IMG/VR virus record: IMGVR_UViG_3300037473_000391
DNA: 64,000 nucleotides
Source of the DNA: a virus
Direction: 5' to 3' (one strand)
Below are positions 4,297-64,000 of this stretch, piece after piece. The position numbers and the translations under genes are program-made. Every line of letters begins with the position of its first letter. Within the stretch, counting starts at the first letter, position 1. The notes below the pieces were generated by a model, which saw only the letters and a list, made by a program, of their open reading frames with translations, had not been told where the DNA came from and searched no databases.

Positions 4297-4326
4297 GAAA
4301 GGTGAACAGCCAGCGTCACGGGTTTG

Positions 4327-4398: not shown

Positions 4399-4450
4399 AG
4401 AAGAACTGCGAGCAAGTCATTGGCGATGGCGATGGGTGAGCATGTGAACT

Positions 4451-4523: not shown

Positions 4524-4527
4524 GGAG

Positions 4528-48810: not shown

Positions 48811-49001
48811 TGGGTGCGCTCCTGCGGGTTACTCGCGAACTTGCGCGCGGCTTCGGGGTTGGAGGCGAGCCACCCGTCAAACGCGTATTGCGCGAGCTGC
48901 CGATCGGCGTAACCGCGGAGGGCCTCTGGGAACGGCGTGCGCGCTCGCTCCTCCTCGCTCATGCGCGGGTCGTGTGGGAAGAATTTGTTGACGTCGATCA
49001 T
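48807..49001 (-). CDS. hypothetical protein
   Basis: 4-nt overlaps on both sides. Confidence 0.45.
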   Translation of the reverse strand: MIDVNKFFPHDPRMSEEERARTPFPEALRGYADRQLAQYAFDGWLASNPEAARKFASNPQERTQ

Positions 49002-49600: not shown

Positions 49601-50445
49601 GGTGCCCCCTGAAAGCGCCGCGCGCGGTCAGGGTGATCGAACGGCTTCGTGAAGTCTTCGACGTTGACGCTTGGGTCGTCGGGCTGGCGCTGGGGAGGCT
49701 TGCGGTTTCCGGCACGCGATGGGTTGGCGCGGTCGTCCTGCGCATCCTTCACGGCCCACTTGCGGTACGCCTGCCGCCACTGGGTTGGCGTTCGCTTTGA
49801 GCCATCGCCAGCGTAGTGGGCAACGAATCGCGCCAGGTAGCGCTCGTGGTTCCCTGCCGCGGGGGTCATATCCAGAACGGCAGCCCCGGGGTCCCAGCCT
49901 TCGACCAGCTCCGTCGGCTCATCAGGGTCGAGAGAACGAAGCTGGGTCCCCCCTGGACCCCCTCCCTGAACAACAACACTACCAACCGTACCGTGCCGTA
50001 CCTTATGGGCCGCGGAATCCGCGCGCTGTCCACCTGTGTTTCCGCGCGGAATATCCTCCGGAGACCCTGAGGAATCCGGCCCGGAATCCTTCTTGCCTCG
50101 CTTGCGATCGCGGTCGCGCTTCCGTTTGGCCTCCACGTCCGCCTTCGACTCGTTCCAATCGAGGAAGTCATGAACCATGTATCCGCCGTCAGCTCGAATG
50201 AAGAGACCGGGGCCATTGGGTCGCAGGCGAGCCTCGCAGAGCTTCTCGGCGAGCTTCTTGGCTTTCGCCATAGGGATGGGCTCAGGTAGGCAGTCCGTGG
50301 CTAGCGCCGCCAGAGGAACGAAGCCGTCTGTCAGGTACTTGTTGCAGTAGACGACGGAGGCCACCCAAAGAGCCCAAGCTTCGTTGCCGGCCACTCGAGC
50401 CTTGGGGTGCGACGCCGAAGCGTCATCGAAGCGCGCCCAGGTCAC
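49597..50445 (-). CDS. hypothetical replication-region protein
   Basis: GTG at 50445 in a GTGA overlap. It has a basic KRKRDRDRKRGKK linker. The function is inferred from position only. Confidence 0.45.
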   Translation of the reverse strand: MTWARFDDASASHPKARVAGNEAWALWVASVVYCNKYLTDGFVPLAALATDCLPEPIPMAKAKKLAEKLCEARLRPNGPGLFIRADGGYMVHDFLDWNESKADVEAKRKRDRDRKRGKKDSGPDSSGSPEDIPRGNTGGQRADSAAHKVRHGTVGSVVVQGGGPGGTQLRSLDPDEPTELVEGWDPGAAVLDMTPAAGNHERYLARFVAHYAGDGSKRTPTQWRQAYRKWAVKDAQDDRANPSRAGNRKPPQRQPDDPSVNVEDFTKPFDHPDRARRFQGAP

Positions 50446-51095
50446 AGGCCTTCCTTTCGCATCAACTCCAACAGCTCGATGATCTCTGCAACGCACCCAT
50501 TCGCGTCCTTCCAGATCTCACTGCCCGTGAATCTCACTACAACGTGACCCTGAGCAACTATCTGGCGATCGCGCTTTCTATCACGCGACACTTGCTGCTT
50601 GGTTGCGGCGTGAAATTCATGCCCGTCGCATTCGACATAGAGAACCTTGGATGAGTTTTCTGGAAGCCAGAAAGCGAAGTCTGGCTTCAGTGGACCACTG
50701 TCAGTGTGAACTCTTGGTTGGGTTTTTACGACGAATCGCCAAGTCTCTTCTTTTGGCGTGTACTCCACCAAAGTGGTTTCATCTTCGGCATCTGAAAACT
50801 CCATTGATGGGGAGAAGTTAAGCAAACAGAGCGCGAGTGCGCGCTCTATAGGAGAACGGGTTCCAGTCAGAAGCGTCTGGCCGCGATAGACGAAGTCCGG
50901 AATCTCCGTGCCATTGATCATCAAAACGGCCAGGACAACTCGAAGCGGAGCGTTAGCCATTCGCTCGACGAATAACTCCGGAACCGGAACGTCATCTAGC
51001 TGAAGATTGCCGATTACCAGTTTGGCGCGGTCTTGTAGCGATAGCCTGAAAGTGTGTTGTCCGCGTTCCAGTTTCGGTTTCTCGTTGCTTCCCAT
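50442..51095 (-). CDS. DUF559 / Vsr-like PD-(D/E)XK endonuclease domain protein
   Basis: C-terminal YVECDGHEFHAATKQQVSRDRKRDRQIVAQGHVVVRFTGSEI. The gene is lower in GC. Confidence 0.65.
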   Translation of the reverse strand: MGSNEKPKLERGQHTFRLSLQDRAKLVIGNLQLDDVPVPELFVERMANAPLRVVLAVLMINGTEIPDFVYRGQTLLTGTRSPIERALALCLLNFSPSMEFSDAEDETTLVEYTPKEETWRFVVKTQPRVHTDSGPLKPDFAFWLPENSSKVLYVECDGHEFHAATKQQVSRDRKRDRQIVAQGHVVVRFTGSEIWKDANGCVAEIIELLELMRKEGL

Positions 51096-51379
51096 TACGA
51101 CACGCCTCCAACCTGTTCAGTTGCGCCGCCCGCCTCGCATGCACACCTTCGACGCGTGCCAAAGATCGCGCCAAGTAAACCCACAGGCAGCATTACGCCC
51201 ACGAGGTACACAAGCACGATGGCGCCGCAGATCACGCCGCCGACCACCCCAATGGCAAGCCCGAGCGGCCATAGGATCGCCGATGCGAGCGCGCCTTTGG
51301 TCCCGAACATCAGCTCAGCGGCGCCAAGAAACACTCCAACGCTCAGCATCACCCAGGCGCTCAACAGACTCTCGATCAC
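51095..51379 (-). CDS. small membrane protein
   Basis: Almost entirely hydrophobic and G/A/V/L-rich. Confidence 0.5.
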   Translation of the reverse strand: MIESLLSAWVMLSVGVFLGAAELMFGTKGALASAILWPLGLAIGVVGGVICGAIVLVYLVGVMLPVGLLGAIFGTRRRCACEAGGATEQVGGVS

Positions 51380-51972
51380 GCGACACCTCCCGCTCGAGCC
51401 CTTCGAAACAACCGCTCACCCGCGACAGCAATGGTAATCGCGTCGGCGACATGATCGTTCGGTGCCTCAAATCCAAGAAACCACTCTACCCACCGGCGAG
51501 TCGCCGCCTTGCGCGCCTTACGCTGCTCATCGTGGCTCACTCCGCGCCGTGCCCGGTAACCCATGACCGAGTTGACGAGCTGCGGCCTGGGGCTCACGAC
51601 GGGGCAGGTGAACAGAAAATGCAGTCCGCCAGCGACATCGCGAACGCGCTCGGCGCTAGCCGAATTGATCCCGATCTTGCGCGCGCCCATGCGCCCCGGT
51701 TCTTGATCCTCGATCGCGACACAGGTGATTGTTACGCCGCTTGTGAACTCAAGGACACCATCGCGCAGGCGCTTGAGACGTTCACTGAACTTGAGCGCGT
51801 TCGTTGTCGTCAGCTTCAGTGTGTCAACGACGCGAGGCTTCCCGGTGCCAAAATTCAGGATAGCCAGCCCGAGCTCCGCGAGTCCCGGATCCACACCCAG
51901 CACCTGTCGCGAAACGCAGGTGAGCGCCGGTTTCTCCAGCACGATGCCTGTTTCGATCAGGGGCTCGTTCAC
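51376..51972 (-). CDS. ruvC: RuvC-like Holliday junction resolvase
   Basis: VLGVDPGLAELGLAIL and VAIEDQ. GTG at 51972 in a GTGA overlap. Confidence 0.7.
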   Translation of the reverse strand: MNEPLIETGIVLEKPALTCVSRQVLGVDPGLAELGLAILNFGTGKPRVVDTLKLTTTNALKFSERLKRLRDGVLEFTSGVTITCVAIEDQEPGRMGARKIGINSASAERVRDVAGGLHFLFTCPVVSPRPQLVNSVMGYRARRGVSHDEQRKARKAATRRWVEWFLGFEAPNDHVADAITIAVAGERLFRRARAGGVA

Positions 51973-52484
51973 GTCGGCTCCTTCCCAACCAACCGAATGC
52001 CCCGGCGCACGCCCTCGCACTTCTTGAGGCATGGCTCGCAGATGCAAGCGCTTACCTCATTGGAGCCGTTCCAGGGCTTGTGCACCGGGATCCAAAGCTC
52101 ATTCTTGAGTTCACTGCACACATAGCAGCGGTTCGTGTGGCGGCGCGTCGCTGCTTTGCGCGGACGATATCGTCGCAGTTCACCTGTGAGCCCCATGTGC
52201 GTACAGAACCACTTACCGTTTTCCTGATGGGTGATGTAGCGAGTCCTGCCGCTCTGGTGATCAAGCCAGATGCGTTGCGCGCATGTCGCGTTTACAATCG
52301 CGTCGTAGGCAGCTCTGGCCTGTTCCGGAGTCAGGGCAACGTCGCCTACCATCACTGCACCACTGGCGGTCGCGCGGATACGCAGGCCACCGATCTCTCG
52401 CTCCGTATTCTCGCCGAGCCATCGCAATGACGGCGCTGACGCGTGGTCCAGTTGCGACCATTCTTTGACTTCCAACAACGTCAC
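51969..52484 (-). CDS. hypothetical protein with a C-terminal Cys cluster
   Basis: CYVCSEL...CICEPCLKKC. Confidence 0.5.
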   Translation of the reverse strand: MTLLEVKEWSQLDHASAPSLRWLGENTEREIGGLRIRATASGAVMVGDVALTPEQARAAYDAIVNATCAQRIWLDHQSGRTRYITHQENGKWFCTHMGLTGELRRYRPRKAATRRHTNRCYVCSELKNELWIPVHKPWNGSNEVSACICEPCLKKCEGVRRGIRLVGKEPT

Positions 52485-52669
52485 GCTTCCACCTCCACGC
52501 GCTTGAGCCCAAAGATCCCGAAGAACGCGTCGGCGGCATCGATGCCCATGACAGCACGCTCGCGCTTGTATGCGTTACCTGAGAGTCGGTAACCAGCCTC
52601 GCGCAGTTTCATCTCACGCAAGGAAGCTATTCCGGCGCGCCGCTTCTGTTGTCGACGATGGCGGCTCAC
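52481..52669 (-). CDS. hypothetical protein
   Basis: 4-nt overlaps on both sides. Confidence 0.45.
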   Translation of the reverse strand: MSRHRRQQKRRAGIASLREMKLREAGYRLSGNAYKRERAVMGIDAADAFFGIFGLKRVEVEA

Positions 52670-53109
52670 TCGGTAGCCTCCAGCACCGAGACCGGCAGCA
52701 TTGTCTCGATCTGTCCGACCGAGAACTCTCGGCTACCAACCTCGCGGCACGCCCAGGGTTGAGCCTTCGCGCCCATCTCGCGCAGTAACACCTCTAGTTT
52801 TGCCGTGTATTCGGACACGACCTCGCGCGCGAACATGTCGTGGTTGCCGTCAGGGTCGCACAGCTCCTCGTTGTCCTCGTCGATCCGCCGCAGACACTCG
52901 CCCATTACGAACTTGGCTAGTCGCGCGTAGTCCGTATCCAACTTCTCGCGCACATATGCCTTGACGGTCACGGGACAACGACTGCGCCAGTCGTCGGTGG
53001 ATTCAACGAAGTCCTGAAGAGCTCCATCAACGTCCTCATGTTGGAGCGTCTCCGCGTTATCGCGCGCGTCGTAGTAGAGCGCGGTGTCGAACGGGTCGAT
53101 GGTGTTCAC
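52666..53109 (-). CDS. hypothetical acidic protein
   Basis: GTG at 53109 in a GTGA overlap. D/E-rich. Confidence 0.45.
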   Translation of the reverse strand: MNTIDPFDTALYYDARDNAETLQHEDVDGALQDFVESTDDWRSRCPVTVKAYVREKLDTDYARLAKFVMGECLRRIDEDNEELCDPDGNHDMFAREVVSEYTAKLEVLLREMGAKAQPWACREVGSREFSVGQIETMLPVSVLEATE

Positions 53110-53771
53110 TCGGCAGCCTCCGCGACACGCGCTTTCGATCCGCGCACCTTCTTCGGAGCCCAGTCCCAGTGCGTGATAAGCCCTGGGTGTTCCGGTAGGT
53201 TGTAGCTGTAGATGCACAGTGCCAGATCCTTTGGGAACGGATCCGTCGACCCCACGAATGTAATGCGCCCAATGCTGTAGACCGTTGCGAACGGTGTGAC
53301 GTACGTGCGCCACCACTTCGTCCCAACGGCGAGTGGGCACAGCAATGCGATCTCGAGGTCGATCGACTTGTGAACCGTCGACTCAGCGCACTTGCGAACC
53401 CAGGGCAAGATAGGGTCAAACGGAGGATTGAGCCAACACAGCTGTTTCAGCTGCGTCCAATCCTGTTTGAGCGAGTCACGCTCTGGACCCCAGCTCAAGT
53501 CGTTGGCTTCATCGCCGACAACAACCGAGCTACCAGGGCTAGCTGCGAGATCGAAGAAGATCACCCCGAAACGACTCTCGACAGCATCAAGGAACGCGCG
53601 TGGTGTTCGCACGTCCTGCGCACTCTTGCCGCGCTTCATGGCGGCCCCACGCACACGCCGGAACTCCACGATCTCGGAGTCCGCCATCATGGGCGGATCG
53701 AAGTCGTCAGCGACGATGCACAGGGGCTTGCCTGACACCACCAACACGCGCACCGCATTCGCTTCAGTCAT
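53106..53771 (-). CDS. dam: phage-type DNA N6-adenine methyltransferase (Dam family)
   Basis: RTPRAFLDAVESRFGVIFFDLAAS and WLNPPF. Confidence 0.75.
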   Translation of the reverse strand: MTEANAVRVLVVSGKPLCIVADDFDPPMMADSEIVEFRRVRGAAMKRGKSAQDVRTPRAFLDAVESRFGVIFFDLAASPGSSVVVGDEANDLSWGPERDSLKQDWTQLKQLCWLNPPFDPILPWVRKCAESTVHKSIDLEIALLCPLAVGTKWWRTYVTPFATVYSIGRITFVGSTDPFPKDLALCIYSYNLPEHPGLITHWDWAPKKVRGSKARVAEAAE

Positions 53772-53967
53772 CTGGGTCCACTCCCATCGTGTTATTCATA
53801 TCTTCGCGCCCGAGCAGCGCCCTCAACTCCCCACACACCCCGCACCAATCCCCCGTGCGCGACATCGTCTGGCAGATCGAGCACCGGGAAACGGCGACGG
53901 GTTTACGCTCCGACTTGGGCTCGCGGTCGATCAGATCGACGAGGTCTCGGGTGGCGTCGAGGGTCAT
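53764..53967 (-). CDS. small zinc-ribbon protein
   Basis: Internal ATG at 53967 (ATGA overlap). CSIC...CGVC. Confidence 0.45.
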   Translation of the reverse strand: MTLDATRDLVDLIDREPKSERKPVAVSRCSICQTMSRTGDWCGVCGELRALLGREDMNNTMGVDPDD

Positions 53968-54233
53968 GGTGATACCTTCTCGCTTGCCCGCGCGTGCGGC
54001 CCGCAGTAGTCCCTGTTGACGCCTTGGCTCACAGCGCACAAGGAACACAGGCAGCGGTCACAGGTCTCTGTTTTGCCGTTGCGGGTTACTGGATAGTCGC
54101 ACCGCTTGGAAGCGGAGCGCCCACAGTGGGGAGTCTGACAGCGTTTCTGCTTCGAGCCCCTCGTGCAAACGAAGCCTGTGACACCGTTGCCGAGATTGAA
54201 AGGTTTGCAGGTCACGCGGCCTCCGGAATCCAA
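53964..54233 (-). CDS. Cys-rich hypothetical protein
   Basis: 12 Cys residues in 89 aa. Confidence 0.45.
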   Translation of the reverse strand: MDSGGRVTCKPFNLGNGVTGFVCTRGSKQKRCQTPHCGRSASKRCDYPVTRNGKTETCDRCLCSLCAVSQGVNRDYCGPHARASEKVSP

Positions 54234-54595
54234 GGCGTTAGCTTGGGAGCGACATCGACGGCTGGCGGCTCATCACCCAGCGCCGTCAAGTCGTAGACGG
54301 GAATGCCGCAGGAGACCGCGTGCGTGGCCTCGATGCGCATACCCGGAGAAACACGGCCCCCGACGAGCACGAGGTAATCGCATCGCTCAACATGCGCGAG
54401 GTCACACGCGATTCCGAGCTCGCGGTTCTCCGGCGACTCGTCCCACACACCCGAGAGCACGATCCAGTCCGCGGATGGGGCACAGTTGAGCGCCTTGGCG
54501 AGCCAGCCGCACCAACGCATTGCGCGCATGCGATTCGCGTCTCGGTCGGCGCCAGCTCCTAGCGGGTGGGCGACGTAAACGATAGGGCGCTTCAT
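54212..54595 (-). CDS. DUF4406 / nucleoside 2-deoxyribosyltransferase-like protein
   Basis: ATG at 54595 (ATGA overlap). VYVAHPLG...CDYLVLVGGRVSPGMRIEATHA pattern. Confidence 0.5.
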   Translation of the reverse strand: MKRPIVYVAHPLGAGADRDANRMRAMRWCGWLAKALNCAPSADWIVLSGVWDESPENRELGIACDLAHVERCDYLVLVGGRVSPGMRIEATHAVSCGIPVYDLTALGDEPPAVDVAPKLTPWIPEAA

Positions 54596-54957
54596 GACCA
54601 CCCCTGCAACGCTTCGCGCAGTTCAGCGACGTCCTGTCGCAGGTCATCAGCTCGTCCCAGTGTCTCGTAAGAGTTTCCACAGAAGTAAGCGGCACCAGCG
54701 CCAATGTATGTCACGACAAGCGACATCAGCGCTACGGCAGGCCAGCTGTCTGGTGCAGCATGTAACTCACGCAGCCCAAACAGGATGTTAACTAGTGCCA
54801 GGATCGCGAACACAACAGACGACGCTCGCTCAGCAATCGCGAGATGCACCCAACCTCTGGCGCTCTCTGTGCGCCACTCGATTCCATCACGCGCGATCTG
54901 GCGCATCGCCGGCGAGCGGACGCCTTCTGTCCACCATTTTCTCACCACGACAACCAC
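54592..54957 (-). CDS. membrane protein
   Basis: GTG start with two hydrophobic segments. Confidence 0.45.
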   Translation of the reverse strand: MVVVVRKWWTEGVRSPAMRQIARDGIEWRTESARGWVHLAIAERASSVVFAILALVNILFGLRELHAAPDSWPAVALMSLVVTYIGAGAAYFCGNSYETLGRADDLRQDVAELREALQGWS

Positions 54958-55079
54958 CCCTCTCGAACGAGATACGCCAGTGACCCAATCGCGAGCGAGC
55001 AGGCCATCGCGATGACGGTCAGGAGTTCATGCGCGCGCGACCAGATGTCCGGCAGCATGGATAGGGTTTCGAGGATCAT
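54942..55079 (-). CDS. 45-aa hydrophobic peptide (not in the ORF track)
   Basis: The ATG at 55079 is in an ATGA overlap with the upstream stop. Sequence MILETLSMLPDIWSRAHELLTVIAMACSLAIGSLAYLVREGWLSW. Confidence 0.35.
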   Translation of the reverse strand: MILETLSMLPDIWSRAHELLTVIAMACSLAIGSLAYLVREGWLSW

Positions 55080-55684
55080 GCCGCCCCCTTGAGACTCGCG
55101 AGTGTCAACTTGTAGGGCTCAATCTCAACGGTAATGAGAACGCGTCCGCGGTAGCGCTGCCAGCCGTCAACCAAGTCCCATCCGATCTCGCCGCTGCGAA
55201 CATCGCGACACCGCTGACCAATCAACGGGCGACCGCTCCAGCCGTCGTGTGCGGCCTCGACGTAGATGCGCTCGGCATGGCGATGGTTCTCCGCCGCCAG
55301 TTCGTTTGCCTCCTTGCGGATGCGGCGCCAATCAATGGGGTTCTCGTCGGTCGCTCGGAAGCGCCATCGGTGAACCTCGCAGCCGCCCGTAATGATCGTC
55401 TCGACGGTGTTGCTTGGGCCGATGTCAATCTTGAACCCAGAAGGGTTGATGCGCCCAGCATTGGGGCCGGCGTCAGTGGTCGCTCGATAGGTGTAAGTGA
55501 TCTCGTTCGATGAGCGCGTTGGTAGTCCACCGATCACCCAGAAGGACAACGCCGTGAACGCGGCCGCAAACGCGCAGATGCGCCATTGGCTAGCGTCTCC
55601 GCCGCTATACCAGGCGTATGCGATAACCTGAAAGACTGCGCCGGAAAGCGCAAACAATGCTCTCACTATTGGGTTATTCTTCAT
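55076..55684 (-). CDS. membrane-anchored hypothetical protein
   Basis: Two N-terminal TM segments. Confidence 0.5.
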   Translation of the reverse strand: MKNNPIVRALFALSGAVFQVIAYAWYSGGDASQWRICAFAAAFTALSFWVIGGLPTRSSNEITYTYRATTDAGPNAGRINPSGFKIDIGPSNTVETIITGGCEVHRWRFRATDENPIDWRRIRKEANELAAENHRHAERIYVEAAHDGWSGRPLIGQRCRDVRSGEIGWDLVDGWQRYRGRVLITVEIEPYKLTLASLKGAA

Positions 55685-55696
55685 CGTTCACTCCTC

Positions 55697-56218
55697 TCAG
55701 CTACCCCGCAGCACTGGCACATGGCGAATAGGTCGACGGTGCTCGATGTCGCTCCAAAGAATCCGAAGCTCCCGATGCGTCTCCGCGCGAAGCTTCGCCC
55801 AGTCAGGGATAACATCCCGCGCGCAACCGCGACCATCCTGCGCGGCGTACATGATCTCTAGTCCGTAGCGCGCGCACATGCCGAGCCGCTTGTCTGCAAG
55901 CGTCGCCGAGATGCGCAGGTTCTCAGGTTCGAGACCGAAGATCGCCTCCCATAATCCTGAATGGGGGTCATCGTGGAGCTGCCACCAACCCCGCGCTTTG
56001 CCGCCATCGCACCAGTAACCTTCGACACACCCGAGCTGGAACTCGGGATTCAGGCCGGTTTCGTGTCGCCCTTGGTTGAGCAGCCGCATGGCGCGCTCGG
56101 GGTTTCCGTGAGCGACATCGGCGATAGCGATCGAAGCGTCGGACGCGACTTGCTCTTGCCCTGGGATCTGTGGCCAAAGCGCCACGAACACGGCGAATAC
56201 GATTTGAGTGAAAGTCAA
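55697..56218 (-). CDS. hypothetical protein, weakly lytic-transglycosylase-like
   Basis: An N-terminal hydrophobic segment, then HETGLNPEF...GWWQLH. This is a weak call. Confidence 0.35.
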   Translation of the reverse strand: MTFTQIVFAVFVALWPQIPGQEQVASDASIAIADVAHGNPERAMRLLNQGRHETGLNPEFQLGCVEGYWCDGGKARGWWQLHDDPHSGLWEAIFGLEPENLRISATLADKRLGMCARYGLEIMYAAQDGRGCARDVIPDWAKLRAETHRELRILWSDIEHRRPIRHVPVLRGS

Positions 56219-56511
56219 AGTTGGTTCCTCTGGGTAAGAATTGCGCTGGACGCGGGGATAAGTGGCGGTACGCGTCGGCGTCTTGGGTTAACTCTATGGG
56301 CAAAGAGAGGGGCGTTGTCCGCTTCCGCGAGCGCCATCCGCGCAGCACTCACGGCGCGCCAGGACTCCTGCAGGTTGCGACGAGTGATCGCGAGAATGTT
56401 GGCCGCGTCCGCTGTGAGCACGGAGTTGGCCGGGAAAGGTGCACGCAAGGCATCAGGCGGGAGGTGGGGAGGGAGACCCGGGCCCCGCGTGCGTAAGTGG
56501 TGGAGGGTCAT
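56215..56511 (-). CDS. hypothetical protein
   Basis: Internal ATG at 56511 overlaps the upstream stop by 1 nt. Confidence 0.4.
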   Translation of the reverse strand: MTLHHLRTRGPGLPPHLPPDALRAPFPANSVLTADAANILAITRRNLQESWRAVSAARMALAEADNAPLFAHRVNPRRRRVPPLIPASSAILTQRNQL

Positions 56512-57419
56512 TACGCGGCCTCCCGAACTGCAGTGATGAGATCGCGCGCCACCGGAGGACACACGGCGTTTCCGAGCCCGCGAATGACGTTCGCTCGGGA
56601 TAGCTCAGTGGGCCAGGTGTACGACTCCGGAAAACCCATGCCGCGTGCGAGCTCGCGAGTTGTGAGAGGGCGATAGCCGCGCTTGCGGTCAGCGAGGATC
56701 CACTGGTCCTTGGTCGTGATTGTTCGAATGGGTTCGTTGATGGGCACGCCGCGATGCCCGGTCGTGTGCTGCACGAGCGCGACGGGGTAGCGCGACAGCG
56801 CTGCTTCGATTCGCCCACGGCCACCAGGTGCCGCTTTGGCGACGGGACGCCAGCCTGTCGCGTCGGCATCGAGGCACGGGGCAAACGCTGGCTCAGTCGT
56901 CAGCGAAAGAGGCAGCTGAAGTGAGCGCCCGTTGCGAAGTCCAACGATGAACAGGCGCTCTCGGCGCTGCGGCACACCATGCGCGCTCGCCGTCAGGACG
57001 TGAGTCGAGAGCGTGTAACCGATGCGCTCCAAGGCCTCGCGCCAGGTCCCGTAGAGACGCCACTGCTGAAAGCTCGTGACGTTCTCGATGATGATCCCGC
57101 TGGGTTCACACGTGTCCGCGCAGTCGACGATCGCCCACGCGGTTGCGCGCATGGCGTCGTGGTAGGCGCGCCGCTTGGGCTGCGAAGCGGTGCTGTGACC
57201 CTGACACGATGGGCTGCCCAAAAGTAGATCGAAGCGCGGGAGCGCGGTCCAGTCGGCTTGTCGGAGATCTTGGCACGCGTGCTCGGTCTCTGGATGGTTG
57301 GCGGTGTGGACCTGGACAGCGAGGGGCGAATGGTTTGCGGCCCAGGCGACATGGACGCCGGCTTGGCGCGCCGCCTCGGTGAAGCCGCCGAAGCCCGCGA
57401 AGAGATCGACGGCGATCAC
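56511..57419 (-). CDS. dcm: DNA cytosine-5 methyltransferase
   Basis: Motif I DLFAGFGG, motif IV GSPSCQGHS, motif VI IIIENV, motif VIII QRRERLFIVG and motif X GNAVCPPV. Confidence 0.85.
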   Translation of the reverse strand: MIAVDLFAGFGGFTEAARQAGVHVAWAANHSPLAVQVHTANHPETEHACQDLRQADWTALPRFDLLLGSPSCQGHSTASQPKRRAYHDAMRATAWAIVDCADTCEPSGIIIENVTSFQQWRLYGTWREALERIGYTLSTHVLTASAHGVPQRRERLFIVGLRNGRSLQLPLSLTTEPAFAPCLDADATGWRPVAKAAPGGRGRIEAALSRYPVALVQHTTGHRGVPINEPIRTITTKDQWILADRKRGYRPLTTRELARGMGFPESYTWPTELSRANVIRGLGNAVCPPVARDLITAVREAA

Positions 57420-57982
57420 GCGGCCCTCGATCGGTTGACGGCAACTGCGCGTGCGATTGAAACCAGAAACTCAGCGAACGCCGGCGGCGTCCTTCTGCGA
57501 CCCGCGGCGGACAACTCAAGCAGATGCGTGTTGCGGTTGCGCGAATTCACGCAGTGAGTTGGAGTTCCGCCTCGCAACAACGTGACCGAGCTCGGTCGAA
57601 CACCAACGACGTAGAGCCAAGTGGTCTTGCGGGCGCGATGCCCCCAGCTGACCTGGTCGACTTCAACCGCCCATCCGCCGAACTCGTCGGGTAAACCGCC
57701 GGGTAACGGCAGGTTGCAGCGATCCCAAAGCTTAGACGCTTGCGGGTGCTCCAGTACGCCGCCCCAGCGACGCACTTGCTCGACGGCGAGCGGCGCTAAA
57801 TCCTTGGGCTGATGACGGCAGAAGAATCGCAGTCGCGACCATGGCCCACACGGCGGATGCGCGACGATTGGGTGTGGGCCTGCGTAACCACGCGCGTCAC
57901 GCTGCTCATCCCAGCAGTCGACACCAGGGAGCTTTGGGTATGGCCCCAGCGCGTCCACGTAGAGGGCCGCGACGGTGATCAT
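57416..57982 (-). CDS. mini C5-methyltransferase-like protein lacking an FxGxG motif and a target-recognition domain
   Basis: ATG at 57982 (ATGA overlap). Motifs AHPPCGPWS (IV-like), GGVLEHP (VI-like), WGHRARKTTWLYVVG (VIII-like) and RRTPPAFAEFL (X-like). Confidence 0.5.
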   Translation of the reverse strand: MITVAALYVDALGPYPKLPGVDCWDEQRDARGYAGPHPIVAHPPCGPWSRLRFFCRHQPKDLAPLAVEQVRRWGGVLEHPQASKLWDRCNLPLPGGLPDEFGGWAVEVDQVSWGHRARKTTWLYVVGVRPSSVTLLRGGTPTHCVNSRNRNTHLLELSAAGRRRTPPAFAEFLVSIARAVAVNRSRAA

Positions 57983-58512
57983 GTTACGTGCCCCCAAGTT
58001 TTTCCGCGCACGATGTCGTGAACGCTTGATGCGTTCAGGTCGACTTGGGCACCGATCTTGGCAAGGCTCAGCCCGTCAGCGCGCAGTCTGCGAATCAGCT
58101 TCACCTTCTCGGGATCAATCTTCGCGTTTGGGTGTTCAGAGCCTGTTTTGAACCGGTTGAAGTGCGCGCGACCGCGCATGCGCATGTCCGAGAGGTTGTC
58201 GGCTTGCGTTCCGAGCTCCAGATGATCAGGGCGGACACACGCGACGTTGTCGCAGCGATGGCGAATCACTTGACCGGGTGGGATATCGCCGCGCGCGAGC
58301 AGCCAACTCATTCGATGAGCAAGGAAACTGCGCTTCTTGATCGCGAACAGACCGTAGCTGAGCGCGCCGCCTCGACGCTTCGTGCGGTACCCCTGCCACT
58401 CCCAACATGCGTCACCCTCAGCCCACTTCACTAGGCTGGCGAAACGCTGAGCGGAAGCCGCTTCGATCCCGCGCGAAGCCCCCCCGCCGGCGAACAAATC
58501 GACGACGATCAC
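57979..58512 (-). CDS. HNH endonuclease whose first ~20 codons look like C5-methyltransferase motif I
   Basis: GTG at 58512 (GTGA overlap). Starts VIVVDLFAGGGASRGIEAA. HNH_3-like CWEWQGYR...HRMSW...HRCDNVACVRPDHLELGTQADN. C-terminal HTH-like segment. Confidence 0.7.
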   Translation of the reverse strand: MIVVDLFAGGGASRGIEAASAQRFASLVKWAEGDACWEWQGYRTKRRGGALSYGLFAIKKRSFLAHRMSWLLARGDIPPGQVIRHRCDNVACVRPDHLELGTQADNLSDMRMRGRAHFNRFKTGSEHPNAKIDPEKVKLIRRLRADGLSLAKIGAQVDLNASSVHDIVRGKTWGHVT

Positions 58513-59153
58513 GCGGCCACCTCCGAGCTGCCCTGAGCGACGCACGGGATCGCTGCGCGAACCTCAGCACAGTCCTGGAACCATTCACCCTGAACACGCC
58601 ACTCAGCGAGGCGCTTGTGCAGGGCCAGCTCGTCACGCTTGGTACCTGGCATCGTGCGCAGAACCTCGACCGAACCGAAGCGCTTCTCGAGATCGCGCAC
58701 CCGTTGCTTCAGGTTCGACGTGAACCCGATCTTGATGCACCATGTGCTCTCGGCACGGATGAAGTACACGACCGATTCGCGTGCGACGCAGACCTTAGGG
58801 CCAAGTCCGTTCCGATTCAGATGCGCGCGCAGCCAAGCGTCAGCATGCGGCGTGTAGATCGTGACCGCGCCTCCCGGAGCACGCTCACAGGGCATCGGAT
58901 TATTCGCTTGCGTGAGCCAGCGCTTGACCGTGCCGAGCGAGAGTTTTCGCAGCTCAGCGTATCGGCGCGGAGTGACTCGCGCGGGCACAAGGCGAGACAG
59001 GGTGACGCGAGCGCGGTCCGCCAGCTGCGTCGTCTTCGTTCCGTCCTCAAGGACAACGTTGCGCCCGAAGTAGCCGCCCTTGGGCATCCACTTGCCAGCG
59101 CTGACTATGCGGCGCCCGTCCCGCATGACCATCTGCGCGGTGGGCTCGGTCAC
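58509..59153 (-). CDS. T5orf172 (GIY-YIG-like) domain protein with an N-terminal HTH
   Basis: VYFIRAESTWCIKIGFTSNLKQRVRDL...HKRLAEWRVQGEWF. Confidence 0.65.
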   Translation of the reverse strand: MTEPTAQMVMRDGRRIVSAGKWMPKGGYFGRNVVLEDGTKTTQLADRARVTLSRLVPARVTPRRYAELRKLSLGTVKRWLTQANNPMPCERAPGGAVTIYTPHADAWLRAHLNRNGLGPKVCVARESVVYFIRAESTWCIKIGFTSNLKQRVRDLEKRFGSVEVLRTMPGTKRDELALHKRLAEWRVQGEWFQDCAEVRAAIPCVAQGSSEVAA

Positions 59154-60529
59154 GACGCCACCACCTTCCGGGCGCGCGTCAAATCCCAGGGGCCAAAGAT
59201 CTCACTACCCTGCTCCGCTGTCCGGATCGCCTTACGGAGCCAGGCGCGATCGTCACTGTTCCGATTTTGGAGCGATTTATCCGCTAAGCCTGCGTTGTCA
59301 CTCTGCTTAGCTCCGGTTTCGTAAACCGTAGGTCTCCAGTTCGATTCTGGAAGTTGGCTCTCTTGTTTTTCCCTGAATTTGACGATAACTCGCTCCGAGT
59401 CACTGGAACGGCTCTGGAACGTTTTCTCCGCCGCCTTGAACGCCTTGTCGTCGAGCAGTTGGGCGTAGATCTCGGTCGTCGTCACAGACGCGTGCCCGAG
59501 TAGCGCGCGCACTTCCTCGAGTGACCACGTGTGATCCGTCTCTGACCACCAGCCTGCGAGCAGCGCGGTGGCCGTCGTGTGGCGAAGCCAGTGCCAGTTG
59601 CGGTACGGGATCTTGCACGCGCGGAACAACTCGACCCAGCCCTTCGGGTGCTTGTTCCAGCGGCGTTGCTCCCCGCGCCAACCCGGGAACAGCCACTCCG
59701 ATTTCGCGAGAGCCGGGAACGCAGAGCGCAGTTCGCCTAGGAGCCGCAGCGCTTCATCTGTTGGCGGGAGACGCGGGACTTCGCGCCAGTCTCCGGACTT
59801 CGGCGATGCGTTCGCTTCACTGCGGCGAATCAGGATCCCTGACTCCGACACGTCCTCGCGCTTGACACCCCACTGCTCCGAAAGGCGGCATCCCGTGCCC
59901 AGGGCGAACAACACCGACGCAAGCAGGAGCTTGCGCTTCGCTTCATCCTGCTTTGCGTGTTCGCTCAGCTTCAGTCGCTTGGGCTCACGTAACTCACGGA
60001 GCAGCGCGTTCTGGTGCTCAGGGCGCAGCAACTTGGAGAGCAGCTCCGTCTTTGGAGTCTTCCCTGCCTTGCCTCGGATCTGGATGCCATCACACGGGTT
60101 GGCCGCCACAAGTTCACGCTCGACCGCGTAGGCAAATGCGTATCGCATCGAGTTTAGGCGATTGCGCTTCGTGCTCGGCGACACTGCGCGATCGATCCAA
60201 TTCTTGATGTGGACGCGCGCCAGGTCGACGGCTCGGGTTGCGCCGAACTCTGCGATGATTGCGGTCCATATGCCGCGCTCACCACGGAGTGTCGATGGCT
60301 TCAGATCGCTGCGACGCAAACGCTCAGCTCTCACGAGCTCGACGAGGTGCCTTACAGTGAACTCGTCAGCCTTGACCTGCAGGGCAACGAGCGCGTCGGC
60401 GTACTCGCGCGCCCTCGCCTCGGTGAGGCCGCTCGCAACGGTCTGGAGTTTGCCCTCGATGCGAGTTCGCACGCGCCACTTGCCCGGCGCGTACTCCTCA
60501 ATGTTACCACTTCCGTACTCGCGACTCAT
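59150..60529 (-). CDS. int: tyrosine integrase with a ~105-aa extension after the catalytic Tyr
   Basis: The ATG at 60529 is preceded by GGAGGA and overlaps the upstream stop. Motifs GCRLSE, HWLRHT and LLGHASVTTTEIY. Confidence 0.9.
   Translation of the reverse strand: MSREYGSGNIEEYAPGKWRVRTRIEGKLQTVASGLTEARAREYADALVALQVKADEFTVRHLVELVRAERLRRSDLKPSTLRGERGIWTAIIAEFGATRAVDLARVHIKNWIDRAVSPSTKRNRLNSMRYAFAYAVERELVAANPCDGIQIRGKAGKTPKTELLSKLLRPEHQNALLRELREPKRLKLSEHAKQDEAKRKLLLASVLFALGTGCRLSEQWGVKREDVSESGILIRRSEANASPKSGDWREVPRLPPTDEALRLLGELRSAFPALAKSEWLFPGWRGEQRRWNKHPKGWVELFRACKIPYRNWHWLRHTTATALLAGWWSETDHTWSLEEVRALLGHASVTTTEIYAQLLDDKAFKAAEKTFQSRSSDSERVIVKFREKQESQLPESNWRPTVYETGAKQSDNAGLADKSLQNRNSDDRAWLRKAIRTAEQGSEIFGPWDLTRARKVVAS
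59312..59359 (+). mobile_element. putative attP core: 3' half of a tRNA-Thr(CGT) inside int
   Basis: CCGGT-TTCGTAA-ACCGT AGGTC TCCAG-TTCGATT-CTGGA AGTTGGC T. There is no D arm or 5' acceptor strand. Confidence 0.6.
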
Positions 60530-60723
60530 CGGATCCTCCGCAGGCCCGCGCTCACGGCGCGCAGCGCTTCTTCGCTGGGGGGTTGCGCCGGCGGGGTCAA
60601 CTTGCGGCGCTTGCGCGGTTTCTGATGCCCTCGAACTCGAGCGAGTTCTTCGGCGCACGCCGAGATGGCAGCAGCGTGGCGAGCAATCTCGCTCGTAATC
60701 TCCTGTTCGCTTCGCTCACTCAT
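60526..60723 (-). CDS. small basic protein upstream of int (excisionase/directionality-factor candidate)
   Basis: Translationally coupled to int. The function is inferred from position only. Confidence 0.4.
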   Translation of the reverse strand: MSERSEQEITSEIARHAAAISACAEELARVRGHQKPRKRRKLTPPAQPPSEEALRAVSAGLRRIR

Positions 60724-60754
60724 GCGCGTGCCCTACAATGATAACCCGTTGGAC

Positions 60755-61060
60755 TCAGTCTTGCACCTGTGACCAGCCGCCAGGTTCGTACTGGCGCTTG
60801 TATCCGACGCAAGGGTTGCCGGGCGGCAGAGCCGCATCGCGGTGCTCTGCCGGCAGGTCACCCTTCTCGTGACGCAACAGCGTCTCTTTCGCGATGTCGA
60901 GCATGAATGGCGCGCACCCACGCGTGTCCTCAGGCTCGACTCGAGCGAACATCTTCACGCCCTCGGCCCGCACGGTATGGGCATGGCCCGTAACTTCACC
61001 GTCTCCGAGAATGAACCTGCCGCGCACTGCCCTCACACTCTTCAATTTCGTCTTTGCCAT
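60755..61060 (-). CDS. hypothetical protein (GDGEVTGHAH motif)
   Basis: ATG at 61060 is preferred because it lies just after the upstream stop. The track start at 61126 is also possible. Confidence 0.45.
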   Translation of the reverse strand: MAKTKLKSVRAVRGRFILGDGEVTGHAHTVRAEGVKMFARVEPEDTRGCAPFMLDIAKETLLRHEKGDLPAEHRDAALPPGNPCVGYKRQYEPGGWSQVQD

Positions 61061-61065
61061 GTCGA

Positions 61066-62451
61066 TCACGCTTCCTGCTGGAACGCCAGCTTTGGGTTTT
61101 GGTTGCACCATTGAGGTGTCGGCCACGAAATGGTCTCGGGCGGCGCGTAGGTCAGCACAACGTCGCCGTGCCGAATCTGCTTGGCGTCAGCGACCGAGCT
61201 GACGGGGATCTGCCAACGTCGTGCCGCTTGGGCGGTTTTCAATTCAGGGTGAACGGGCTCCACGAAGTGTGGTTGCGAGCCGTCATGCAGCGCGGGCGAA
61301 CGCATGCGCAGGAACCGCGGCTGCTCGTCCCCGAGCCGCGTTGCCGTGTCCAGCAACTGATAGTCGAGTCCCGTCTTCGGATCCTGCCACTCGTCGATCG
61401 TCACGAGGTCGCGCAGCGCGAGATACTTTTCCCAACCGAGCTTCTCGGCAAGGCATCGGTGTATCTCCGAGTTGCGCTCTGCATTCAGCTCCTCGCGGGT
61501 GAACGACTCCGGCTCCGTGATGACGCGCTTGTCGACGCGCACACCGTGCCAGACATAGATCTCGTAGCCATCACGGCAGCGCAGCGCCGGGCCATCGGAG
61601 CTGTGCAGGCGACCACGTTCGTCCATCGAGAAGCTCTCGTGCCGCTCGGAGCAGATAACGAATTCACCAAAGACGAAGAAGTGTGTGGGACCGCTGATCA
61701 GCTTGAGCCAGCGCTCTAGCTGTGCGTTCTGATCTGCAGTGAACTCCACACCGCAGACGTCGCGCACGGACGCGCAGTGCATCCACCAGCTGAACCAATG
61801 CGTTGACCAGCGGTTACCCCAGGCACGCCAGTGCAGATCGGCGAGTTGCCCTCGGAGTTGCCCTCGGAGTTGCCCGTCGAGTTGCCCTCGGAGTTGCCCG
61901 TCGAGTTGCCCTCGGAGTTGCCCGTCGAGTTGCCCTCGGAGTTGCCCGTCGAGTTGCCCGTAGAGTTGCCCGGCGAGTTGCCCTCGGAGTTGCCCGTCGA
62001 GTTGCCCGTAGAGTTGCCCGTCGAGTTGCCCGTAGAGTTGCCCGTCGAGTTGCCCTCGGAGTTGCCCGTCGAGTTGCCCGTCGAGTTGCCCGTAGAGTTG
62101 CCCGTAGAGTTGCCCGTAGAGTTGCCCGTCGAGTTGCCCTCGGAGTTGCCCGTCGAGTTGCCCGTCGAGTTGCCCGGCGACGTCAGCGAGCTTCCCGCTC
62201 TTTGCCAAGATCAGCGCATAGGCGATGAGGGGCGCCGCAAGCACGCAGCTCAGCGGGCCGTCGAACCAGAAGATTTTAGGCGCTGGCTTGCCAAGGGCGG
62301 CGTACATCTCGGTCAGAACAGCGGCGGTGGTCTCGCGGTCTGCCGGTTCCGTGCTCTTACCCTTGGCAAGCCAGCGCTCGCGCTCGGAATCGATCCGATT
62401 CCACTGCTCTGGTGTCAAACTTGTGATCTTGGCGTTTCCCATCGCGTTCAC
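61066..62451 (-). CDS. hypothetical protein with 28 tandem GQLx tetrapeptides
   Basis: 461 aa. The repeat block is flanked by W-rich non-repetitive domains. Confidence 0.65.
   Translation of the reverse strand: MNAMGNAKITSLTPEQWNRIDSERERWLAKGKSTEPADRETTAAVLTEMYAALGKPAPKIFWFDGPLSCVLAAPLIAYALILAKSGKLADVAGQLDGQLDGQLRGQLDGQLYGQLYGQLYGQLDGQLDGQLRGQLDGQLYGQLDGQLYGQLDGQLRGQLAGQLYGQLDGQLRGQLDGQLRGQLDGQLRGQLDGQLRGQLRGQLADLHWRAWGNRWSTHWFSWWMHCASVRDVCGVEFTADQNAQLERWLKLISGPTHFFVFGEFVICSERHESFSMDERGRLHSSDGPALRCRDGYEIYVWHGVRVDKRVITEPESFTREELNAERNSEIHRCLAEKLGWEKYLALRDLVTIDEWQDPKTGLDYQLLDTATRLGDEQPRFLRMRSPALHDGSQPHFVEPVHPELKTAQAARRWQIPVSSVADAKQIRHGDVVLTYAPPETISWPTPQWCNQNPKLAFQQEA
61841..62176. repeat. 12-bp in-frame tandem repeat, 28 copies
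   Basis: Plus-strand units are GAGTTGCCC followed by TCG, GTC or GTA. These encode GQL(R/D/Y) on the minus strand. Confidence 0.9.
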
Positions 62452-62532
62452 TCCTTACCGCTTGTCCCGAATCGCTCTACTGGTCACTCTCTCAGCTCTT
62501 GCGCACCGCGTCGCAGTGGTCACCTTCGGCGC

Positions 62533-62724
62533 CTATGAACCATCTGCCCTGGCTGCTTCCCTGCGATCAATCTCCGCCCACACGTCCGTTAACCGGAGGC
62601 GCAAAGCCTCAGCGCCAAGACGTCGGGCCTCAAACAGCGTGACGGCGCGGACGCGCTTGGCGAACTCGCGTTTGCGCTTGCCCTTCGGGAACGCCCACCA
62701 GTAGCACGTCCCGGTTTCATCCAT
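62533..62724 (-). CDS. hypothetical basic protein
   Basis: Track ORF. Confidence 0.45.
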   Translation of the reverse strand: MDETGTCYWWAFPKGKRKREFAKRVRAVTLFEARRLGAEALRLRLTDVWAEIDRREAARADGS

Positions 62725-62738
62725 CGTGCACTCGTCAA

Positions 62739-62754
62739 CGCAAGTTTACTTGCG
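62739..62754. promoter_or_regulatory. 16-bp palindrome CGCAAGT-TT-ACTTGCG (operator candidate)
   Basis: Perfect 7-bp arms. It lies between divergent genes, 15 nt from the ATG at 62724. Confidence 0.35.
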
Positions 62755-62867
62755 CCCGCTACAGATCCGTAACCCGCCGAAACCATTGCGCGGCCCAACT
62801 GAACACATGCCCCAACTAGACCACCGAACCGCGAGCAGGAACGATTCCGCGCGAAAGGAGGGCGCTC

Positions 62868-63029
62868 ATGCCCAAAACAAGCGCTTGGCACTCGGTCAAG
62901 CAACCCCATCATCACGACAACACGAAATGTACTGAAGGCAATAACGTGGAGAAGGAGAACCGCCGCGAAGGCACAGGCGGTAAGCCGCTCTGCGTGCATT
63001 GCGCCCAGCTCGACCGTGATGGCAAGTGA
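62868..63029 (+). CDS. 53-aa protein (not in the ORF track)
   Basis: AAGGAGG lies 6 nt upstream of the ATG. Sequence MPKTSAWHSVKQPHHHDNTKCTEGNNVEKENRREGTGGKPLCVHCAQLDRDGK. Confidence 0.6.
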   Translation: MPKTSAWHSVKQPHHHDNTKCTEGNNVEKENRREGTGGKPLCVHCAQLDRDGK

Positions 63030-63031
63030 GC

Positions 63032-63379
63032 TCATGATGCTGCTCGCTTCTGCTCTTCGGAGTGGTAGCGCGCCGCAATAGGAAAGAGCTCCGGATCTGG
63101 TGGGGCATCACTGCTCCACCGTCCGTCTACAAGCCGATGTGCGACACGCGGTACCCACCGCAGCATGACGCCCTTCGCTATGGCGGCCTTCTCGAAGCAG
63201 AGTTCGCAGTACGCGCCATCAGCTCCGTGGCCAGTAATCTCGGTCCACAACTCAGGCGGCGCCCACCAAACGGCTCTCGGTTGACGTCCGCAGCACTCGC
63301 AGAACTCGACAAGTCGATCGCCAAACCCAAGCCGGCAGACGAAGAGCTTGAATAGTAACAGTGGACTGATGCGCCTCAT
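63032..63379 (-). CDS. hypothetical Cys-containing protein
   Basis: ATG at 63379 (ATGA overlap). CECCG...CELC. Confidence 0.45.
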   Translation of the reverse strand: MRRISPLLLFKLFVCRLGFGDRLVEFCECCGRQPRAVWWAPPELWTEITGHGADGAYCELCFEKAAIAKGVMLRWVPRVAHRLVDGRWSSDAPPDPELFPIAARYHSEEQKRAAS

Positions 63380-63570
63380 CGCGACTCCCCGTACTTTCGG
63401 GACCACTGTGCGTCCCATTGCTCGTCTGCCTCGGACAACGGCGGCAGCGTCACATCATGCAGCCAGTCACCGAGACGACGGAGCCCCAGTACCCACAGAA
63501 CCCCGCAAACCGGATGCCCAACGACGTCGTGCAGGATGACCCAAAGCGGGCGCGTAAACTTGGAGCCCAT
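63376..63570 (-). CDS. small hydrophobic protein
   Basis: ATG at 63570, or GTG at 63579. Confidence 0.4.
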   Translation of the reverse strand: MGSKFTRPLWVILHDVVGHPVCGVLWVLGLRRLGDWLHDVTLPPLSEADEQWDAQWSRKYGESR

Positions 63571-63890
63571 CACTCGCACCCCTCCGGGGTTCCTTGGAGG
63601 GTGTCGTGGGCGGAGGCCGCCTCGCGCGCAATCTCCACCGCTGCTTTGATTTGATCAGCAGTCGGCACCTCGCCCTCGCCATCAGTGAGGTGACTCACCT
63701 TGACGCCGAAGACGTTTGCGAGGCTCTGCAGCGTCTTGTGAGTCGGGTTCCCTTTCCCGTGCTCGATGTTCCAAATGCCGGCGCCCGCAAGCTTCGCGAT
63801 CTTTCCCAACGCGCGTGGGCTGAGACCCGCTAGCTCCCGTAGCTGCTTGATACGCTCTCCGGGCCCAATCGTTCCTGTCATGTTCACCAT
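63570..63890 (-). CDS. XRE-family HTH regulator (repressor/Cro-like)
   Basis: GERIKQLRELAGLSPRALGKIAKLAGAGIWNIEHGKGNPTHKTLQSLANVFGV. Possible starts are 63881, 63890 or a TTG at 63917. Confidence 0.75.
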   Translation of the reverse strand: MVNMTGTIGPGERIKQLRELAGLSPRALGKIAKLAGAGIWNIEHGKGNPTHKTLQSLANVFGVKVSHLTDGEGEVPTADQIKAAVEIAREAASAHDTLQGTPEGCE

Positions 63891-63939
63891 AGTGACACCG
63901 CTCACCAGAATGGTCAAGCCTAACCGCGTTCACTATGGT
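63886..63939. promoter_or_regulatory. 10-bp inverted repeat ACCATAGTGA ... TCACTATGGT
   Basis: The arms lie at 63886-63895 and 63930-63939 and bracket the 5' end of the XRE gene. Confidence 0.3.
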
Positions 63940-64000
63940 TGACCCGTGCGTTACCATCACTTTGATGAACACGTGGGATACGCTCGCCAAGCGGGTCGCG

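Follow-up and report, generated by a model that had tools for sequence, protein, structure and literature searches.

The stretch of viral DNA analysed here, hereafter the window, is a 64,000-nucleotide sequence from the IMG/VR record IMGVR_UViG_3300037473_000391. It carries int, the gene of a tyrosine integrase (Int), and this gene is crossed on the opposite strand by a sequence that reads as the 3' part of a tRNA-Thr(CGU), which we analysed as a candidate core of the phage attachment site (attP). The features concerned are as follows:

60526-60529, minus strand: ATGA overlap between the start of int and the stop of the upstream gene (sequence, open reading frame (ORF) list)
59150-60529, minus strand: tyrosine integrase gene int, 459 amino acids, protein P0001 (ORF list, Pfam, PHROG)
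59465-59467, minus strand: codon of the catalytic Tyr355 (in TEIY), followed by 104 codons (sequence)
59314-59360, plus strand: putative attP core, the tRNA-Thr(CGU) 3' part from tRNA position 28 to the discriminator plus one base (alignment A3, sequence)
59153-59313, minus strand: post-core tail of Int, codons 406-459, predicted to be replaced on integration (geometry)
59150-59153, minus strand: GTGA overlap between the stop of int and the start of the next gene (independent gene calls on the contigs L001-L004 agree)

Int matched PF00589 (Phage_integrase) over residues 188-359 (45.4 bits versus a cut-off of 27.1; E = 1e-11) and phrog_1 (integrase) over residues 16-375 (E = 7.5e-42), and the catalytic set R215, K244, H313, R316, H346 and Y355 is invariant in the alignments A1 and A2. 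An AlphaFold model of Int, built on a 13-sequence alignment, is confident in its core and has a sheet of three strands plus a helix at the N-terminus (residues 9-55; predicted local distance difference test (pLDDT) score of ~70-85). As modelled, this N-terminal region looks typical of arm-binding domains, such as those of lambda-type integrases; no Pfam match to an arm-binding domain was obtained with Int. An earlier, sequence-only reading of this DNA had described a ~105-residue extension past the tyrosine of TEIY, with the tRNA fragment lying antisense in it, and a GTGA coupling of the int stop to the next gene. These features hold: the fragment lies antisense to codons 391-406 of int (ESQLPESNWRPTVYETG) and starts 36 codons past the catalytic tyrosine. 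The 4-nt overlap between the int stop and the next start is also present in the related loci L008, L130, L131 and L133-L135.

The fragment displays, at 59313-59359 (plus strand), an anticodon arm (CCGGT-TTCGTAA-ACCGT, with the anticodon CGT) and a 5-nt variable loop (AGGTC), followed by a T arm (TCCAG-TTCGATT-CTGGA, with 5/5 stem pairs), the 3' strand of the acceptor stem (AGTTGGC) and a discriminator T. All these elements had been recognized by the sequence-only reading, which placed them at 59312-59359; this anatomy stands and the left boundary does not. Indeed, the outermost pair of the anticodon stem is a C.T mismatch, so that the block collinear with real tRNAs (59314-59360; alignment A3) begins 2 nt later. 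The view that this is a fragment and not a gene was borne out, since ARAGORN, run on the window, called no tRNA at this position and the Rfam tRNA model scored 21.2 bits over 59288-59359, i.e., below its gathering score of 29. The 29-nt stretch comprising the T arm and the acceptor strand occurs once in the window (0 occurrences expected by chance), and neither a second copy of the core nor a full tRNA-Thr was found within these 64 kb.

The 26 nt lying 5' of the core (59288-59313, plus strand) faintly resemble the 5' half of a tRNA (GCC where the acceptor strand begins, TCA and AGC at the D stem, and 5/7 acceptor pairs), which is why the Rfam model aligns end to end. This segment may descend from an entire tRNA gene that was once captured, or the likeness may be due to chance; given the subthreshold Rfam score and the scattered identities, we do not claim a vestigial tRNA 5' half there.

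From the following comparisons, we propose with good confidence that int contains, in this fragment, a functional attP core for tRNA-Thr(CGU). First, a degenerate core pattern retrieved at least 120 genomic sites and, among the matches listed, the closest ones are tRNA-Thr(CGU) genes of two Polyangiaceae metagenome-assembled genomes (MAGs; L063 and L066), both confirmed with ARAGORN. Over the stretch that runs from tRNA position 28 to the base following the discriminator, these genes differ from the window only at the T-stem pair 49:65, which is A-T in L063 and L066 and T-A in the window, i.e., the change is compensated. The next closest among the matches listed belong to other Polyangiales and to "deltaproteobacterial" MAGs. 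Second, we placed the Int homologues that are 48-62% identical to P0001, which we call close relatives, in their own contigs. In the long forms (L005, L008, L130 and L131), the same codons of int are crossed by an antisense tRNA-Thr(CGU) fragment, and in the short forms (P0005-P0009; L006) int stops 9 nt before the same kind of fragment. The T stems of these relatives vary on both strands together (TCCAG/CTGGA, TCCGG/CCGGA, GTGTG/CACAT and AGGGA/TCCCT), as would be expected if each phage tracked the tRNA of its own host. Third, codon alignments gave synonymous substitution rates (dS, NG86) of 0.1-0.65 in the 16 core codons versus 1.1-1.4 in the int body, and in the core the nonsynonymous rate (dN) is about equal to dS. 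The depressed dS, together with dN being similar to dS, indicates that the core is constrained at the level of the DNA, not of the protein. On these comparative data, a chance origin of the tRNA-like stretch is ruled out.

Many of the genomic matches are orphan 3' fragments adjoining non-tRNA sequences, i.e., the kind of displaced half that islands integrated in tRNA-Thr are expected to leave. Several Polyangiales-type MAGs possess more than one orphan tRNA-Thr(CGU) 3' fragment besides the full gene (for instance L067 and L070, on the same contig, and L018, L030, L047 and L086, in the single MAG MFD03726.bin.2.96), so that tRNA-Thr(CGU) is a busy integration site in these genomes. In L116, a full tRNA-Thr(CGU) gene and a fragment are located 2.7 kb apart. 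The tRNA comparisons point to an uncultured Polyangiales-type myxobacterium as the most likely host of the phage, and we regard this as a good lead.

The core is bracketed by a 33-nt direct repeat, D1 (59252-59284 and 59399-59431), and by a 13-nt inverted repeat, I1 (59269-59281 and 59384-59396). The repeats have the element TGGA(A/G)CG in common, and they delimit two candidate arms:

59252-59284, plus strand: candidate attP arm on the side away from the int body (D1 and I1 repeats, motif scans)
59384-59431, plus strand: candidate attP arm on the int-body side (repeats, motif scans)

The first arm contains TGGAGCG (59268-59274) and the 13-mer GGAGCGATTTATC (59269-59281), and it encodes the conserved Int motif SLQNRN. 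The second arm contains the inverted 13-mer (59384-59396) and two copies of TGGAACG (59404-59410 and 59415-59421, with an 11-nt spacing), and it encodes EKTFQSRS. Three of the 29 TGGARCG copies of the window fall within 154 nt around the core. In the relatives, a tandem TGGAACGnnnnTGGAACG is found at +87/+98 from the anticodon loop (L131 and L005), +90/+101 (L008) or +91/+102 (L006), and the distal element is at the same offset in L131 and L005 (TTCCAATTCTGGAGCG) and in L008 (TTCCAATTCTGGAATG). The offsets of these elements are thus kept in L131, L005, L008 and L006 despite saturated synonymous divergence nearby. We infer from these repeats that TGGA(A/G)CG is a candidate arm-type site of Int. 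If this is right, the whole attP would extend over ~59250-59430, within codons ~365-430 of int, and would be coding throughout, and the Int motifs EKTFQxRS and LQNWN would partly reflect constraints on the DNA.

Searching IMG/VR and the JGI metagenomes with the Int alignment brought up ~100 more loci (29-60% identity). A strict T-arm hairpin (5/5 stem, TTCRANN loop) was counted in the 68 distinct int ORFs that possess a stop codon; it occurs in the tail that follows the catalytic tyrosine in 55/68 of them (41 antisense and 14 sense) versus 1/68 in the much longer body, and in several of the 13 ORFs that scored negative the motif is there but its stem is imperfect. Across the family, the core is read in two antisense registers (SRLSDLNRRPVLYES and ADFEIRTRDLRFTK) and in one sense register (FVNRRSGVQIPKLAP), and the sense orientation was verified on the DNA of L133. 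The sense tRNA-Thr(CGU) core read as FVNRRSGVQIPKLAP was seen in L133 (~11150-11215), L143 (~7100-7165), P0016 and P0018-P0024, and stop codons inside the fragment (TAA and TAG) close the two remaining sense frames. The existence of both sense and antisense cores implies that the att core was flipped relative to int during the history of the family, while the read-through was kept. Judging from these sequences, attP sits inside int as a rule in a large family of metagenomic integrases, with both orientations and three registers represented.

The targets of this family include tRNA-Thr(CGU), tRNA-Cys and tRNA-Arg. The tRNA-Cys(GCA) gene is targeted by L188 (Ga0265314_10000001, 3.79 Mb), L189 and L215. 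The first two are integrated, and their Int ends with ...SDSNRRVTVLQTVA-stop inside the tRNA-Cys; in L215 the SDSNRRVTVLQTVA motif is followed by a tail, with a total of 519 residues after the catalytic tyrosine. The loci L214, L223, L225, L231 and L232 overlap or abut tRNA-Arg genes.

Both the integrated and the free arrangements were encountered in a sister clade (35-43% identical). In L157, L210 and L211, which represent the attL form (attL and attR being the two junctions of a prophage with its host), the 3' end of int overlaps a complete tRNA-Thr(cgt) gene and the tail ends with ...AVYETAALPLS-stop; on the far side of the tRNA-Thr, L210 carries the host gene argJ. In L181 and L218, which represent the attP form, the sequence is 96-98% identical to that of L210 up to the anticodon loop and then diverges completely, and in L181 int is followed by phage genes (HNH/AP2 and DUF2303). 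Thus, the rewriting of the Int C-terminus is real in the family, and it is predicted from the geometry for the phage of the window. In L136 (IMGVR_UViG_3300049021_000095), the provirus record ends at the stop of the truncated int, ~6 nt short of the 5' end of the tRNA; it has the same truncated tail and the end of the contig lies inside the tRNA. Apparently, the attL tRNA of this record was cut when the provirus was trimmed at a gene border. The attP forms L140 and L141 have the same core, followed by 51 further tail residues.

Turning back to the window, the genes that flank int and the other features of the stretch are as follows:

58509-59153, minus strand: phage gene with a T5orf172/MUG113 domain, downstream of int and translationally coupled to it (Pfam, PHROGs; same order on L001-L004)
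60526-60723, minus strand: ORF of 65 amino acids directly upstream of int, with the ATGA overlap (ORF list)
61066-62451, minus strand: ORF of 461 amino acids, with a long run of tandem DGQL(R/Y)GQL repeats (N-terminal half) and DUF6745/phrog_31813 (C-terminal half)
4224-4604, minus strand: cluster of tRNA-Pro(TGG), tRNA-His(GTG) and tRNA-Met(CAT), the only tRNA genes of the window (ARAGORN)
33397-33738, minus strand: transfer-messenger RNA (tmRNA) gene, tag peptide ANDNATALPVAA (Rfam, 60.8 bits)

The 65-residue ORF had no Pfam or PHROG match and, by its position only, might speculatively be regarded as an excisionase-type gene. According to Pfam and PHROGs, phage-type genes occupy both flanks of int, namely the T5orf172-like gene, an HNH endonuclease, phrog_12600 and a C5 methyltransferase leftward, and phrog_31813/DUF6745 and an XRE-type repressor rightward. 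Four contigs (L001-L004), which originate from four samples, encode an identical Int and show a single gene order across the fragment. This shared order, together with the phage genes on both sides, indicates the attP form, so that the unintegrated configuration proposed by the sequence-only reading is supported, all the more so as neither a second core nor a full tRNA-Thr is present. Matches to the baseplate, tail sheath, major head protein, head protease, portal and large terminase families correspond to ORFs at ~13-41 kb of the window. Taken with the observations on the flanks of int, they identify the window as the genome of a temperate phage that possesses a contractile-tail module and is in the unintegrated arrangement. 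A megablast search of INPHARED with the positions 45000-64000 of the window retrieved no match, i.e., the phage has no close cultured relative there.

A different explanation of the locus would be that the window is a chromosome carrying a prophage and that the fragment is a displaced piece of attR or attL. The tmRNA gene and the three tRNA genes, usually thought to be chromosomal, could be taken in this sense. The tmRNA gene, however, lies inside the structural module of the phage, with the tail-sheath gene (30559-32073) on one side and the major head gene (35214-36314) on the other; the phage-family genes on both sides are translationally coupled to int; the same junction recurs on four contigs from different samples; a full tRNA-Thr or a second core is absent within 64 kb; and the G+C content of the window is uniform (~0.59-0.65). 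We therefore regard a chromosomal origin of the window as barely credible.

With the window read as an unintegrated phage genome, the position of the core leads to the following predictions. Int would exchange the core with the host tRNA gene, thereby generating an intact tRNA gene from the host 5' half and the phage 3' half. The int gene would then lie at one end of the prophage and run antisense through the tRNA 5' half into the host DNA. As the core is identical in the bacterial attachment site (attB), no change of the protein would occur inside the core; the first base that differs in the host would be 59313, so that Int would retain residues 1-405 and exchange its last 54 (406-459) for host-encoded ones. 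Hence, the rewriting of the Int C-terminus announced by the sequence-only reading agrees with the geometry and with the attP and attL forms of the sister clade, and its count of 55-70 codons has to be lowered to 54. The orphaned tail codons, together with the coupled downstream genes (T5orf172-like, HNH and methylases), would be moved to the other end of the prophage. The operon would thus be cut in two, and the downstream genes would be severed from the promoter driving int. The expected attB would be a tRNA-Thr(CGU) gene with ...GGTCTCCAGTTCGATTCTGGAAGTTGGCT; the expected attL would be the tRNA 5' half (GCCAACTTAGCTCAG...) joined to 59361 onward; and the expected attR would be 59313 downward joined to the sequence 3' of the tRNA-Thr. 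When the window is grafted onto Polyangiales tRNA contexts, the predicted hybrid proteins comprise 411-495 amino acids and end in VYET-VALPTELSW... or VYET-AALPLS-stop, the stop of the latter being supplied by TTAGCTCAG, read antisense, in the D-stem region.

The tail that integration would remove looks like a real coding region. Its frame contains no stop, and four independent assemblies give the identical protein. The G+C contents at the three codon positions are 0.60/0.51/0.70 in the post-core tail (codons 407-459) versus 0.65/0.49/0.76 in the int body. The dN/dS ratio of the post-core tail is ~0.27 between the window and L130, and ~0.29 between L131 and L005, and the tail motifs GPWDL and AW.R are common to P0001, P0002 and P0010 (48-62% overall identity). 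We dismissed a chance open frame: by our own estimate ~5% of 100-codon stretches would be free of stops at this G+C content, and the frame is open in nearly all relatives and shows the overlap of start and stop codons. We also dismissed as spurious a plus-strand ORF (58407-59324) covering the tail, as it has its third codon positions in common with the int frame and shows the wrong order of G+C contents at the first and second positions.

Several observations weigh against a working attP core with a meaningful tail. The exact 24-mer made of the T arm and the acceptor strand was found 0 times in IMG/VR and in 185,579 GTDB species-representative genomes, and 0 times in JGI metagenome contigs, the latter being a weak null since this set is without the samples that carry the phage. 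Searches for a lysogen (attL/attR) of this phage or of its close clade (at least 48% identity) retrieved none, and a tblastn search with Int of the 120 genomic tRNA-Thr loci listed retrieved only distant integrases (L030, 29%; L112, 34%). The earlier claim that attB is a tRNA-Thr(CGU) gene is sustained by the near-identical genes of L063 and L066, one compensated pair away, by the relatives and by the depressed dS, but not by an exactly matching host tRNA, an identical 3' half or attL/attR junctions. The arm motif TGGARCG was chosen post hoc, and over the window as a whole its 29 matches are no enrichment relative to the 27 expected. As regards the tail, the short forms P0005-P0009 end before the core, which implies that the tail is dispensable for recombinase function; residues 388-459 have a pLDDT of 29-45 in the AlphaFold model, so that this region would be either disordered or too thinly sampled for modelling; the codon signal of the tail is weaker than that of the body; and the attP-form tail of L181 comprises 10 amino acids only, i.e., rewriting can be trivial in some members.

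The missing exact attB and lysogen, and the faint tRNA 5'-half resemblance next to the core, might suggest that the fragment is a decaying relic, either of a captured tRNA gene or of an old att site, which is no longer used, the phage integrating elsewhere or not at all. Decay is difficult to reconcile with two intact stems, with a T-stem difference that is compensated relative to the closest tRNA, with a suppression of synonymous changes specifically in the core, with the retention of the feature in 55/68 members of the family, with sister-clade members integrated at exactly such a site, and with a complete catalytic set in Int. In our opinion, a relic is very improbable.

Assuming that the fragment is a functional attP core, the role of the tail has to be considered separately. 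It may be that the att site is right and that the tail is devoid of any regulatory role, the frame being kept open for the passage of ribosomes over ~200 nt, for coupling and against polarity, with a neutral swap on integration. This account fits the stop/start overlap that is kept in the window, L008, L130, L131 and L133-L135; the use of three registers and both orientations across the family, which implies that the amino acids of the core are not the conserved target; and the short forms, the low pLDDT values and the 10-residue tail of L181 mentioned above. It fits less well with the dN/dS of ~0.27-0.29 and the GPWDL and AW.R motifs kept in P0001, P0002 and P0010, which indicate some selection on the peptide, and with the report that the equivalent change in Mx8 alters the properties of Int (PMC6070905). 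We consider that this neutral account has a real chance of being correct, somewhat short of even. The tail swap may alter the activity of Int, as in the built-in switch suggested by the sequence-only reading, or the expression of the downstream genes in the lysogen. An explanation by coupling only is equally economical.

A bolder proposal is that the tail swap is a general directionality or commitment device of a large, undescribed clade of soil-phage tyrosine integrases, in which integration removes the tail, changes the activity or stability of Int and cuts the operon, the frame being kept open for the sake of the switch. This is a tentative idea, which we regard as rather doubtful. If it were true, the free phages would make an Int with a mostly disordered tail of ~50-120 residues, encoded over attP and past it, which would be removed by integration; the early operon would be cut in two, its downstream genes being expressible again only after excision; and, with selection acting on the switch rather than on any given peptide, a frame open over the core would have arisen repeatedly, in a sense register as well as in two antisense ones.

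As for the host and the integration site of this uncultured phage (at least 64 kb), these results offer a concrete clue to the former, i.e., Polyangiales-type myxobacteria, and a prediction for the latter. They also indicate that what seemed a peculiarity of Mx8 is not a one-off and is the rule in a broad metagenomic integrase family. For annotation, pipelines that bar tRNA fragments from coding sequences, or trim proviruses at gene borders, would misplace the ends of such prophages and mis-call the C-terminus of their integrases. The int-attP cassette for tRNA-Thr(CGU) could serve for integration in myxobacteria, like the existing Mx8 and Mx9 cassettes. And, should the tail swap alter Int, it would add a factor-independent layer to the control of directionality.

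The arrangement of attP within int is already known from the myxophage Mx8, and what is new is that it is typical of a large integrase family. The two phages differ in their target, which is tRNA-Thr(CGU) here and which we take to be tRNA-Asp for Mx8. Like here, Mx8 harbours an antisense tRNA 3' core in int, past the catalytic domain (Tojo et al. 1996; Magrini et al. 1999, cited in PMC4383910 and PMC6070905). In its record (AF396866), the T arm, acceptor strand and CCA lie at ~6440-6470, and the stop of int at 6809 is located ~110-120 codons further on. Both phages have a small gene directly upstream of int that overlaps the int start, and the host phylum, Myxococcota, is also the same (probably so for the present phage). 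According to a review (PMC6070905), the int of Mx8 acquires another 3' end on integration and its properties change, and Mx9, with its single int gene, is reported to follow a similar principle (Julien 2003, cited in PMC6070905); the functional effect of the change in the int 3' end is experimental for Mx8 only. Furthermore, the core of the window starts in the anticodon stem, whereas the visible tRNA-like part of Mx8 starts at the T arm and has a terminator hairpin. Specifically, the region 6405-6470 (minus strand) of the Mx8 record (L129) comprises the tRNA-like piece, CCA and a terminator-like T-run hairpin (CCCCAGCAAG...CTTGCTGGGGTTTTT), antisense in int. The contractile-tail module of the window also contrasts with the short non-contractile tail of Mx8 (PMC6070905). 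In a two-sequence BLASTP comparison, the Int of Mx8 and P0001 showed no significant similarity (E = 0.037), and a tblastn search of INPHARED with Int did not retrieve Mx8, the best hits being Pseudomonas phages (27% identical). The likeness to Mx8 is therefore architectural only: the term "Mx8-style" used by the sequence-only reading is appropriate for a core that lies inside int past Tyr355, and not for a homology to the IntP of Mx8.

In the mycobacteriophages BPs and Brujita, which exhibit integration-dependent immunity, attP also lies in a phage gene and the change of the C-terminus operates as a genetic switch, the gene that is cut being that of the repressor, not int. The 'suicidal' integrases of the SSV type, from archaeal viruses, also have their attP inside the integrase gene and target tRNA genes (PMC8371274; PMC4383910). 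Their integration splits the gene and leaves no intact integrase, whereas in the present case residues 1-405, with all catalytic residues, would remain contiguous. The RAP44-like phages of Riemerella possess an attP in int that corresponds to a tRNA 3' end (tRNA-Ser), and their int is altered slightly (PMC12169736). Their 19-bp core is at the extreme end of int and ~24-43 nt are changed, whereas here 54 codons would be replaced and the whole attP, with its candidate arms, would be coding. More generally, the islands and phages that target tRNA genes (Islander; PMC4383910) carry in attP a 3' tRNA fragment that restores the gene, as proposed here, and the sister-clade junctions also belong to the class of anticodon-centred crossovers (PMC4383910). 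Most of these elements have an int that stops short of attP, like the short forms P0005-P0009 of the present family.

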